Assembly: GCA_036339735.1 (NCBI GenBank) | Contig: JAYZAL010000036.1 | Coordinates: forward strand, 96,001-160,000 | Direction: 5' to 3' | DNA length: 64,000 nt | Source: Candidatus Poribacteria bacterium | Lineage (GTDB): Bacteria; Poribacteria; WGA-4E; UBA9662 | Shown here: in pieces, positions 50,026 to 53,195 of the stretch | Layout of the letters: each line of letters starts with the position of its first letter | Position numbering within the stretch: position 1 is the first letter of the stretch | Made by a program: the position numbers and the translations under genes | Notes under the pieces: model-generated | Seen by the model: only the letters and a program-made list of their open reading frames with translations | The model's database searches: none | What the model was told of the DNA's origin: nothing

Positions 50026-50526
50026 ATGTCAGATATAAATCCGAAGCGAGCTTCTACGAACACTTTTGCTGCGCATTTGAGTCGGGCACAAGCAGCAACT
50101 GACGAGTCTGGTAACACACTGACTAAATCTGACCCTATAAAAGCAAGTAGTCTGTCAACTCGGTTAGCCTTAGAAATTGAAGGAACATCACCCCATAGTT
50201 GGGAGGATGCATCTCAAAGAGCATTGGCTAATGCCCACCTGATTGGACCAGCTGAATTTGACATAATATACCAAACGGGAATAGTAGAATATGGTAAGAT
50301 TAAAGAGTACCGAATTGGCCTAAGGGTTTACTCAGACGATCCTACATCACTAACAAATATACATCTGCAAAGACAACAATCGAATATCGTGGGTGAACCG
50401 ACTGATGCTGAAAACTTTGACCCGTTTTTAGAAAGAACGGTTCAATCAGAATCACAAAAACAATTGGCCGAACACTATCAGACGGTTCGAAATCTTGGAG
50501 AGAAAGAAAAAGGAGATAAAGAATAA
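50026..50526 (+). CDS. Dodecin-domain protein with N- and C-terminal extensions
   Basis: LEIEGTSPHSWEDASQRA...QTGIVEYGKIKEYRIGLRV resembles the dodecin core. Confidence 0.7.
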   Translation: MSDINPKRASTNTFAAHLSRAQAATDESGNTLTKSDPIKASSLSTRLALEIEGTSPHSWEDASQRALANAHLIGPAEFDIIYQTGIVEYGKIKEYRIGLRVYSDDPTSLTNIHLQRQQSNIVGEPTDAENFDPFLERTVQSESQKQLAEHYQTVRNLGEKEKGDKE

Positions 50527-50528
50527 CT

Positions 50529-51755
50529 GTGCCTGACGTAAAAATATACACAACTGACTTCTGTTCTTATTGTGAAGTAGCGAAGCGTTTACTAGGAAAA
50601 ATCGGGGTAAGTTATCAGGAGATCAATATCCATGGAGATGCCAAAAAGCGAGATGAAATCGAAGCACTAACCGGACGACGAGATGTGCCACAAATCTTCA
50701 TTGATAATCAACACATTGGAGATGATGATGACCTTGCGGCCCTAGTAAACTCTGGTAAGATTAACGAATTGTTAAATACTGAAGAACCCGAAGAAAAAAC
50801 GGAGACGAAAGCGATCGAAGAACGGAATGTTGTCATAATTGGTGGTGGTACTGCTGGCTTCGCGGCTGGAGTGTACACTTCGCGTGCCATGTTAGAACCA
50901 TTGCTCCTAACTGGTGAAGCACTTGGTGGTCAGCTCTCGTTGACACTAGACCTAGAAAACTATCCTGGCTACTTTGGAAACGAGGCTAATGAGTTCATTA
51001 TGGGCTTGAAAGAACAAGCCGAAAAATTTGGTACTGAGACTCGTTTCGAGACCGTTACAGATATCGATTTGGGTCAACATCCTTTTCTTGTTAATACTCA
51101 CGACCAGAGCTATTTGGCGAAGTCTGTCATCATTTGTACCGGCTCATCTCCTAGAATGCTGAACATCACAGGGGAACATGAGTACGGTGGAAAAGGTGTT
51201 TCTTACTGTGCAACATGTGACGGCTTCTTCTTTCAAGATCAGCGTCTGATTGTCGTTGGCGGGGGAGACGCAGCACTAGAAGAAGGTATATTCTTGACAA
51301 AATATGCTTCTGAAGTCTTCATTGTACACCGTAGAGACCAGCTAAGAGCCAGTCAAATCATGCAAGAGCGAGCATTCAAGAATGATAAAATTAAGTTCAT
51401 TTGGGATACCGTGGTTGAAGAAGTTGTTGGGGACGAGCAAAAGGTAACAGGTGCCAAACTAAAGAATGTAAAAACTGGTAGGACCGAGATTTTTCCCATT
51501 GATGGCGTATTTGTATTCATAGGACATATTCCTAACAATGAGTTATTTAGAGATAAAATTGATCTGGATGATCAAGGATATGTGATTGTTGACCGAAAAC
51601 AACAAACCAGTGTAGCAGGAATTTTTGCCGCCGGGGACATCCATGACCATGTATTTCGACAAGCCATTACGGCTGGAGGGGCAGGTGCAGCAGCTGGCAT
51701 CATGGCTGAAAAATTCATTGCTGATCTGGAAAATCGTTCTTACCCAACTGAATAA
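50529..51755 (+). CDS. trxB: Glutaredoxin - thioredoxin-disulfide reductase fusion
   Basis: N-terminal Grx3-like domain (CSYC, VPQIFI); TrxR motifs IIGGG, GGQL, GVSYCATCDG, GGGDAA, HRRD, FAAGD, RQAITA. Confidence 0.92.
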   Translation: MPDVKIYTTDFCSYCEVAKRLLGKIGVSYQEINIHGDAKKRDEIEALTGRRDVPQIFIDNQHIGDDDDLAALVNSGKINELLNTEEPEEKTETKAIEERNVVIIGGGTAGFAAGVYTSRAMLEPLLLTGEALGGQLSLTLDLENYPGYFGNEANEFIMGLKEQAEKFGTETRFETVTDIDLGQHPFLVNTHDQSYLAKSVIICTGSSPRMLNITGEHEYGGKGVSYCATCDGFFFQDQRLIVVGGGDAALEEGIFLTKYASEVFIVHRRDQLRASQIMQERAFKNDKIKFIWDTVVEEVVGDEQKVTGAKLKNVKTGRTEIFPIDGVFVFIGHIPNNELFRDKIDLDDQGYVIVDRKQQTSVAGIFAAGDIHDHVFRQAITAGGAGAAAGIMAEKFIADLENRSYPTE

Positions 51756-51782
51756 ATAATTAACTTCTATGGAGGATGTAAA

Positions 51783-52037
51783 ATGGGACTGGATTGGAAA
51801 CCACGCCACCGTGATTTGGTGATTGGGAACATTGATTGGCTAGCTCGTATAACAGACAAGGTCAGGGCAAAATTGGCGGGTATATTGGGCGAATATATCT
51901 ATCCTTGACCACAGGATAATAAGTTCCTGGAGGAACAAAGGTTAACTGCAGAGGAATTCGTACAGATAGTAGTCGACAACCCCTCAGATGAAGAAATGAT
52001 TGTTGCCATCAAAAAACTAGAAAACAGTAATTTATGA
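51783..52037 (+). CDS. DUF5069-like small protein with in-frame TGA (probable selenocysteine, codon 42)
   Basis: GGAGG RBS at 51771-51775; MGLDWKPRHRDLVIGNIDWLARITDKVRAKLAGILGEYIYP-TGA(51906-51908)-PQDNKFLEEQRLTAEEFVQIVVDNPSDEEMIVAIKKLENSNL; family-like pattern continues after the TGA. Confidence 0.8.
51909..51933 (+). promoter_or_regulatory. Candidate bacterial SECIS hairpin
   Basis: CCA-CAGGA-TAATAAGT-TCCTG-GAGG immediately 3' of the in-frame TGA. Confidence 0.5.
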
Positions 52038-52103
52038 CGGGGACAAGTTGTTTTTTGGATCAAATACAATAAATTTGAGCATGTATAGCGTGGGGAATCT
52101 TTT

Positions 52104-53195
52104 TTGAAGCTAGAAGACTTTCGGAAACAGTTAGACACAATTGATGACCAAATTTTGGCCTTACTCAACCAGCGGATCGATGTCGTTGAGCAGGTTGGTG
52201 ATCTTAAAAGAGAGCAAAGTCAATCACACAAAAAAGAGTTACAAGTCTATGCTCCACACCGAGAGAAACAAATCTTGGCTCGGTTACATCAAAAAAATCA
52301 CCATTTTCCGATTCAGGCATTAGATAAAATTTATGGAGAAATCATTTCTGCCTGCCGATCAGCAGAAAAATCATTAAAAATTGCATTTCTTGGTCCGGTC
52401 GGAACTTTTGGCCACGCTACTAGTTTAGAGCACTTCGGATCCTCAGTCGAATTCGTGCCGATTACGCCACAAGCAGATATTTTTTCGGAAGTGGAATCAA
52501 AACGAGTCGATTATGGTGTGATTGCTATTGAAAACTCGACTTACGGTAGTGTTCGAGACATTTTAGAGATGTTTCATCATACCTCACTCCAAATTTGCGG
52601 TGAGCGAATGATGAAAATAGATCACAACCTTATGTCAATTTCCCCACTTTCAGACGTGAAGCGAATTTATTCTCACGAGCAAGCATTTGCTCAATGTCGT
52701 TTCTGGTTGAAACAGAATTTGTCTAATGTTGAATTCGTTCGTGTACACAGTACTGCAGAAGCTGCCAGGCTTGCTACCAACGAACTTGGTTCAGCTGCTA
52801 TTGCTAGCCGGTTAGCAAGTCAATATCATCGTATGCCCATTATTGCTAAGTCGATCATGGATAATACCAATAATATGACCAGATTCCTAATTATTGGACA
52901 TCATACGGCAGAACCAACTGGTCAAGATCGAACTTCTATTCTGTTTGGTGTACGTGATAAAGTTGGGTCATTAGCAGATGTGTTAACTATTCTCCGGGAC
53001 CATCGTCTTAACATGAGTAAAATTGAATCACTTCCTTCTCAAAATAAGACTTGGGAATATGTGTTCTTTGCGGACTTCAGTGGCCACCAATTAGACCCAC
53101 AAGTTAGTCTAGCTCTGCCGTCGATTCGAGAAAAATCTGCCTTTGTAAAAGTTCTTGGAAGTTATCCTACAGACAACAGATATATTGAAACGTAA
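52104..53195 (+). CDS. pheA: Chorismate mutase / prephenate dehydratase
   Basis: AroQ-type N-terminus; FLGPVGTF, IENSTYG, NMTRF, ACT domain MSKIES. Confidence 0.95.
   Translation: MKLEDFRKQLDTIDDQILALLNQRIDVVEQVGDLKREQSQSHKKELQVYAPHREKQILARLHQKNHHFPIQALDKIYGEIISACRSAEKSLKIAFLGPVGTFGHATSLEHFGSSVEFVPITPQADIFSEVESKRVDYGVIAIENSTYGSVRDILEMFHHTSLQICGERMMKIDHNLMSISPLSDVKRIYSHEQAFAQCRFWLKQNLSNVEFVRVHSTAEAARLATNELGSAAIASRLASQYHRMPIIAKSIMDNTNNMTRFLIIGHHTAEPTGQDRTSILFGVRDKVGSLADVLTILRDHRLNMSKIESLPSQNKTWEYVFFADFSGHQLDPQVSLALPSIREKSAFVKVLGSYPTDNRYIET

Follow-up and report, generated by a model that had tools for sequence, protein, structure and literature searches.

Does the short frame that opens directly behind a glutaredoxin-thioredoxin reductase gene of this marine bacterium really end at its first TGA codon, or is that codon read as selenocysteine (Sec)? 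At this place the window, by which we mean the whole 64,000-nt stretch of Candidatus Poribacteria DNA that was analysed, presents an apparent gap between two longer genes. An earlier note, made from the letters of the window, had proposed that the gap hides an 84-residue selenoprotein in which Sec replaces a conserved Cys. The features of the region, in window coordinates, are as follows.

50529..51755, plus strand: glutaredoxin-thioredoxin reductase fusion (Grx-TrxR), 408 residues (Pfam Glutaredoxin and Pyr_redox_2; TIGR01292, 371.5 bits)
51771..51775, plus strand: ribosome-binding site GGAGG, 7 nt ahead of the ATG, read from the sequence
51783..52037, plus strand: putative selenoprotein gene, short-form DUF5069, 84 codons, with Sec (U) as codon 42
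51906..51908, plus strand: UGA codon 42, Sec candidate in the motif YP-U-P, aligned with Cys
52104..53195, plus strand: pheA (chorismate mutase, prephenate dehydratase and ACT; Pfam CM_2, PDT and ACT)

The frame described in the earlier note can be read directly: behind GGAGG, an ATG at 51783 opens a frame that meets the in-frame TGA at codon 42, remains open for 42 further sense codons and closes with a terminal TGA at 52035-52037. GGAG or AAGGAG lies at comparable spacing in the 20-nt upstream strings of the orthologs. The read-through translation begins MGLDWKPRHRD, passes through GEYIYP-U-PQDNKFLEE and continues to SDEEMIVAIKKLENSNL. As the note had also remarked, the mechanical ORF list misses the gene because the TGA splits it, and holds the first half only, as a 41-aa ORF (51783..51908). 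The host assembly is a marine Poribacteria metagenome-assembled genome (MAG) of 4.32 Mb in 107 contigs, 92% complete, and the public runs containing this stretch are labelled as seawater or marine metagenomes. The candidate phylum Poribacteria comprises bacteria of sponges and of the sea, none of which, to our knowledge, is in culture.

Taken at face value, the TGA at codon 42 would be a true stop, leaving a 41-residue peptide or a pseudogene, and what follows it would be a relic or non-coding sequence, such as a leader of pheA. Elsewhere in this genome TGA serves as a stop in the usual way, terminating 369 of the 1661 ORFs of at least 300 aa; the ORF list ends the frame here; and pheA lies downstream in 120 of 139 related loci, those with a Cys form included.

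The read-through protein matches the Pfam profile DUF5069 (PF16798) with 56.7 bits (cut-off 27, E 3.7e-15), and the match covers residues 7-78 and hence crosses the TGA, which is the outcome that the family assignment in the earlier note had predicted. The match corresponds to profile positions 4-75 of 133, that is, to less than the full-length domain, hence the name short form; short-form homologues of 80-95 aa are common. The NCBIfam models returned no family for the read-through protein at E <= 0.01. The sole solved relative is 3omd, an "uncharacterized protein" of 145 residues from Leptospirillum rubarum (profile E 2.9e-16), and in a pairwise alignment U42 pairs with the Cys of its YNCPLD motif. 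The same genome also encodes two multi-repeat members of the family:

C38:91771-93057: 441-aa DUF5069 triple repeat
C38:134547-135389: 293-aa DUF5069 double repeat

In both of these paralogs Gly replaces the Sec or Cys, and the order as a whole has similar multi-repeat DUF5069 proteins, 285-460 aa long. Because the multi-repeat paralogs carry Gly, only the short form and proteins of the 3omd type have the reactive residue. The conserved Cys that the earlier note had given for DUF5069 is thus present in the short-form subfamily and in 3omd, but it is not a property of the whole family.

We then considered whether the TGA and its alignment with Cys hold across relatives. An ortholog at E <= 1e-10 was found in 168 of 176 Poribacteria genomes, with identities of 56-99%. 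Within the order to which this genome belongs, 61 genomes from 4 families and 11 genera were covered, and the best match of every one has an in-frame TGA. Match rows for 164 of the 168 ortholog-bearing genomes (the rows of G080, G081, G084 and G131 stand outside this count) comprise 156 with an in-frame TGA and 8 without a stop. All eight stop-free orthologs come from one family (f8) of another order in the same class, and a looser pattern finds a Cys codon at codon 42 in each of them (TGC in seven, TGT in one). Among the 139 fetched loci, 134 were parsed; since the two sets share genomes, distinct sequences were counted. Of 111 distinct 240-nt sequences, 107 have TGA exactly at codon 42 and 4 have TGC or TGT. 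The TGA is fixed at codon 42 in 107/107 distinct TGA-type sequences, which is far beyond chance. The alternation of TGA with TGC or TGT at this codon, over a conserved downstream part, is what the earlier note had proposed to look for in related genomes, and the possibility it had raised against itself, a TGA unique to this assembly, is contradicted by the 156 genomes that carry it.

Protein collections gave the same picture. In 120 homologues listed from a collection of 5.8 billion proteins, the residue aligned with U42 is Cys in 103 and W in 17, and never Gly. A W at that site is a TGA as written by a gene caller that uses genetic code 4, so that the listed residues reduce to Cys or TGA. By the names given in the sources, the Cys forms belong to Poribacteria, Latescibacterota, Gemmatimonadota and Limnochordia. 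Codon 42 therefore falls on a Cys column, as had been predicted, in 3omd, in the eight f8 orthologs and in those 103 listed homologues.

An assembly error at the TGA had been named as a further way in which the reading could fail. Contigs that cross 51906-51908, from one independent DNA run and from three metatranscriptome-labelled runs of three studies, list no other letter; because the independent DNA and the RNA-library contigs agree, the TGA is not an error. Several of the RNA-library contigs span both the putative selenoprotein gene and pheA, although such contigs cannot prove transcription.

If the frame is translated past codon 42, then the sequence behind the TGA should look like the sequence ahead of it. 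Across 106 distinct TGA-type sequences, the nucleotide entropy at codon positions 1, 2 and 3 is 0.36, 0.19 and 1.11 bits in codons 2-41, and 0.45, 0.30 and 1.16 bits in codons 53-80; the coding signature therefore runs on past the TGA. The 38 downstream codons keep frame, length and periodicity in these 106 sequences from at least four families, and the downstream residues are equally conserved in Cys forms, whose frame is uninterrupted: D45, L49, F59, N66 and D69 are invariant in Sec and Cys forms alike. No conserved start codon follows the TGA in the orthologous sequences, where codon 47 is ATG, AAG, TTG or CTG, and a relic would not be expected to survive in 156 genomes. A true stop at codon 42, whether in a peptide gene, in a pseudogene or ahead of a pheA leader, is therefore hardly credible, even though the TGA is an ordinary stop elsewhere in the genome and pheA usually follows. 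Separately, we note that the Ala codon 56, GCT (51948-51950), 12 nt past the hairpin described below, is unusually constant (97/107): its third-position entropy is 0.49 bits, whereas other Ala codons have ~1.6. We found nothing that would convincingly pair with it.

A bacterial Sec codon needs a selenocysteine insertion (SECIS) element close behind it, and the earlier note had pointed to a stem-loop formed by CAGGA (51912-51916) and TCCTG (51925-51929). This stem exists in the window and is the fold that RNAfold picks here, yet it scores no better than shuffled sequences (z -0.69), and it is not conserved: its middle pair is broken in 40/97 distinct sequences and two further pairs in 9/97 each. 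We therefore reject it as the SECIS element. What is conserved instead is an adjacent, overlapping hairpin, GUUCC-UGGA-GGAAC:

51923..51936, plus strand: candidate SECIS core GUUCC/GGAAC with loop UGGA, 5-bp stem, 14 nt

The core is the block GTTCCTGGAGGAAC, with its arms at 51923-51927 and 51932-51936, and is encoded by the codons for F-L-E-E; the stem begins 14 nt past the UGA, and the distance from UGA to loop is 19 nt. It is paired in 97/97 distinct sequences and is the consensus helix returned by RNAalifold. Three of its pairs never vary, and the only changes in the stem are three, each of which yields a G-U pair. There is no compensatory covariation among the 97 sequences, so that the support for the helix is its invariance. 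This invariance extends to synonymous positions: third-position entropy in codons 47-52 is 0.27 bits compared with 1.11 and 1.16 bits in the flanks, and the third base of codon 47 is constantly G while the residue varies between M, K and L. At the protein level, FLEE is present in 17/17 listed TGA forms (in one displaced by an inserted codon) compared with 9/100 Cys forms. A 3-bp extension of the core hairpin was tried and rejected, with 41.9% of cells paired, and an Rfam scan of 51700-52150 at E <= 10 gave no match.

The bacterial SECIS (bSECIS) model, as set out in the available text of a 2026 AEM review (PMC13188914), has a loop of 3-9 nt on a stem of 4-16 bp, places a G within the first two positions of the loop, sets the loop 16-37 nt past the UGA and asks for a minimum free energy of -7.5 kcal/mol or lower. 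The geometry of the hairpin agrees with this model (a 5-bp stem, a 4-nt loop UGGA whose second and third letters are G, and a spacing of 19 nt). Its energy falls marginally inside the limit, at -8.1 kcal/mol, solely when a 63-nt stretch is folded under the constraint that the hairpin forms; taken by itself, the core is weak (-4.2 kcal/mol; alignment consensus -5.7), and unconstrained RNAfold in this window prefers the CAGGA/TCCTG stem. Overall, GUUCC-UGGA-GGAAC fits the published model and is a candidate SECIS element.

The block GTTCCTGGAGGAAC could conversely be a palindromic DNA operator or some other RNA element, acting for example in pheA regulation or as a terminator on the minus strand, with Sec insertion relying on another signal. 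Consistent with such roles, it is a near-perfect inverted repeat, a simple scan scores it as terminator-like on the minus strand, and it has no compensatory changes. However, no minus-strand gene ends there for it to terminate; the hairpin accompanies every TGA form in the alignment and is lost from all eight Cys orthologs of family f8, which retain pheA downstream; and both its spacing to the UGA and its GG loop are as in the SECIS model and in the organism's own selD and fdhA genes. We therefore regard a role other than SECIS as very improbable and retain GUUCC-UGGA-GGAAC as the candidate Sec signal.

Because decoding of UGA as Sec depends on dedicated factors, the presence of the Sec machinery was an obvious point to settle, and the earlier note had called for it. 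All three of the protein genes it named are in the genome above their curated cut-offs: selA (579 bits), selB (362 bits) and selD (359 bits). Two further genes of the genome have in-frame TGA codons at classical Sec sites:

C70:27545 (TGA): selD, Sec site SCAG-U-ASK
C47:123993 (TGA): fdhA-type molybdopterin oxidoreductase, Sec site CSRA-U-HAP

As in the DUF5069 gene, a loop containing GG comes after each of these Sec codons, 16 nt past the UGA in selD and 18 nt past it in fdhA; this is the resemblance that the earlier note had suggested looking for. The organism thus appears to have at least three selenoprotein genes (DUF5069, selD and fdhA-type). Sec use in Poribacteria is in itself already known, since a 2026 paper, in the part available, names Poribacteria among the phyla from which Sec-containing group 4 hydrogenases come; a 2017 paper, likewise in its available part, records SelA and SelB in bins of sponge symbionts from several phyla.

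The tRNA for Sec was not found in this 92%-complete, 107-contig assembly with RF01852, ARAGORN or blastn. The best RF01852 match, at 45.2 bits (gathering score 47), is a tRNA-Ser, and blastn with the tRNA-Sec of relatives gave T-arm matches only. By contrast, tRNA-Sec with anticodon TCA is present at 76-78 bits in 5/5 complete genomes of the same order. ARAGORN reports 34 tRNA genes in the assembly, with the Glu, Lys, Ile and Cys isoacceptor families among those missing; because several families are missing, tRNA absences in this MAG carry little weight.

The missing tRNA-Sec, together with the W that public gene callers write at this site in 17 listed homologues, could be taken to mean that a standard residue (Trp, Cys, Arg or Gly) enters at the UGA, through near-cognate suppression or a reassigned code. 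Because TGA is an ordinary stop in this genome, a reassigned genetic code is excluded. Suppression, for its part, has to contend with an aligned residue that in homologues is Cys, never Trp or Gly, with the presence of SelA, SelB and SelD and of selD and fdhA TGA codons at classical Sec sites, and with a SECIS-type hairpin whose presence co-varies with the TGA. Insertion of a standard residue is accordingly highly unlikely. The selenoprotein reading, on the other hand, is supported by the joint conservation of the UGA, the frame downstream of it and the hairpin, and by the alternation of this arrangement with Cys codons unaccompanied by the hairpin. With the frame, the Sec/Cys pair and selA, selB and selD in place, the main proposal of the earlier note has held up well, and it is very probable that 51783-52037 encodes an 84-residue short-form DUF5069 selenoprotein whose UGA would be decoded by the ordinary bacterial route.

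To follow the distribution of Sec and Cys forms, 211 short-form sequences were placed on a tree built from 83 columns, the Sec/Cys site being masked (a quick search of low resolution, leaving out P0001, P0030, N-containing sequences and duplicate proteins). All 104 TGA forms fall within one clade of 131 rows (SH-aLRT 89). The remaining 27 rows of this clade are Cys forms; 24 of these, the f8 orthologs among them, group together in a single sub-clade (SH-aLRT 95). Outside the large clade there are 80 rows, every one of them Cys. The minimum number of Sec/Cys changes is 4, of which well-supported branches force only 1. A single gain of Sec from Cys, with reversions afterwards, would fit this tree, although the branch support does not settle the matter. 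Loss of the Sec machinery as the origin of the f8 Cys form was considered and rejected: selA and selB are present in 5/5 f8 genomes tested, and because f8 retains them its Cys form is not a result of loss of the Sec trait.

We next turned to the neighbourhood of the gene. The only neighbour conserved across the phylum is pheA, which does not imply a functional link. The Grx-TrxR fusion, which has its glutaredoxin domain at residues 4-63 and ends 27 nt ahead of the selenoprotein ATG, adjoins the gene in only 10/139 loci, all of them from this genome's own family (f1), and was rejected as a conserved partner. Directly upstream of it, a 166-residue ORF (50026-50526, plus strand) has a weak dodecin match (31.8 bits); a dodecin-like ORF was found in 6/139 related loci. 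Elsewhere the upstream position belongs to a 969-residue membrane protein, UPF0182 (PF03699; e.g. L079:74-2983), which lies upstream in 117/139 loci, and in 72/77 loci with 3-kb flanks from the main-order families f2-f4. It ends ~17 nt before the selenoprotein gene, giving the order UPF0182, DUF5069(Sec), pheA in most Poribacteria. In the present genome UPF0182 is on another contig (C15). Because it is non-adjacent in f1 and in families outside the main order, UPF0182 is a lineage-specific neighbour, and it was rejected as a general partner.

To consider what the protein might do, we examined its predicted structure. The AlphaFold model (18 orthologs, pLDDT 76.4) is all-helical, with helices at residues 20-32, 43-51, 56-65 and 69-82, so that residue 42 directly precedes helix 43-51. 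It superimposes on 3omd with a Foldseek TM of 0.74 and, by VIA, a Z of 9.3 and an rmsd of 3.3 over 82 residues (2-84). Structure searches for a functional analogue returned 3omd only, all other matches having Z <= 3.7 or Foldseek E > 3. No thioredoxin-fold chain is among the listed structure matches, although a missing match does not prove a different fold. An ESM Atlas feature search with a natural Cys homologue returned DUF5069 clusters only, at 0.84-0.87 and thus below the tool's 0.9 level. None of the 18 aligned orthologs has a second Cys, or a UxxC or CxxU motif. The protein is thus predicted to be small, all-helical and not thioredoxin-like, and the modelled fold is not that of a known redox protein.

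These observations suggest the following scheme. SelD would make selenophosphate, with which SelA would turn Ser-tRNA(Sec) into Sec-tRNA(Sec); SelB, bound to the in-ORF mRNA hairpin just past the UGA (here GUUCC-UGGA-GGAAC), would deliver Sec-tRNA(Sec) to the ribosome, and Sec would be inserted at UGA codon 42, as judged from the sequence. The selenol of U42 may then serve as the reactive nucleophile in a redox or transfer reaction of the single-Cys type and may be regenerated by an outside thiol system, for which the adjacent Grx-TrxR fusion is a possible candidate in this lineage. We infer a single reactive selenol, redox or nucleophilic and recycled by a thiol system, because Sec alternates with Cys, because the residue stands just before a helix and because there is no second Cys. 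As for the redox-catalytic role that the earlier note had proposed, the Sec/Cys pair on which it was built is borne out, but the Grx-TrxR neighbour, confined to one family, lends it weak support. Sec/Cys alternation is usually a sign of a reactive residue, and it therefore offers a testable handle on DUF5069, a family with a structure (3omd) and no assigned function.

To determine whether the family had been described before, we searched the literature. DUF5069 is not mentioned in the searchable literature, nor is 3OMD together with Leptospirillum, and the accessible portion of the literature on selenocysteine in Poribacteria contains nothing about a DUF5069 protein. Table 1 of the 2026 AEM review (PMC13188914) gives 119 selenoprotein families and subfamilies, and the available text of that review names neither PF16798 nor DUF5069, its two "5069" strings being parts of accession numbers. 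Similarly, deep-Sep (2025) and BSepDB (2026) have no mention of DUF5069 in their available text, though the supplementary tables of these three publications might list the family. We therefore consider it likely that this is an unlisted selenoprotein family: a short-form DUF5069 with YP-U-P, present in about nine of ten Poribacteria genomes, whose fold is all-helical and not of the thioredoxin type, whose SECIS core, at 14 nt, is very small and invariant in sequence, and whose Sec would be the catalytic residue of a DUF with a crystal structure.

In conclusion, annotation has overlooked what is very probably a true selenoprotein gene; the family is likely to be new, and the decoding mechanism is textbook, which makes the discovery incremental and not conceptual. 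The prokaryotic selenoproteome would thereby grow by one family, contributed by Poribacteria. The Sec form of the gene is missed or cut short by automated annotation, in keeping with which none of the 17 listed TGA forms comes from an NCBI source. Moreover, a hairpin that stays constant over ~100 sequences amid drifting codons is a natural data set on what SelB of this lineage requires.

The protein can be set beside three known systems. Most prokaryotic selenoproteins, according to the available text of the 2026 AEM review, are thioredoxin-fold proteins with UxxC or CxxU. They resemble the DUF5069 protein in the presumed reactive selenol that replaces a Cys thiol and, in this lineage, in the Grx-TrxR neighbour, whereas the DUF5069 model is all-helical and has neither a second Cys nor a UxxC or CxxU motif. 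A second comparison is with the classical bacterial FdhA and SelD genes with an in-ORF SECIS, this genome's own copies included, which likewise have an in-frame UGA at a Cys-equivalent site and a GG apical loop 16-19 nt on, and whose decoding likewise depends on selA, selB, selC and selD; compared with fdhA, where the 63-nt fold has -24.6 kcal/mol, the DUF5069 hairpin is weaker (5 bp, 4-nt loop). The third comparison is with 3omd and the Cys short forms of 80-95 aa, which share with the present protein the Pfam family, the fold and the motif G-[ED]-Y-x-Y-x-C-P-x-D. 3omd has ~60 residues beyond the part that corresponds to profile positions 4-75 of the short form, and the present protein differs from both in having Sec at the Cys site and a SECIS hairpin within its F-L-E-E codons.
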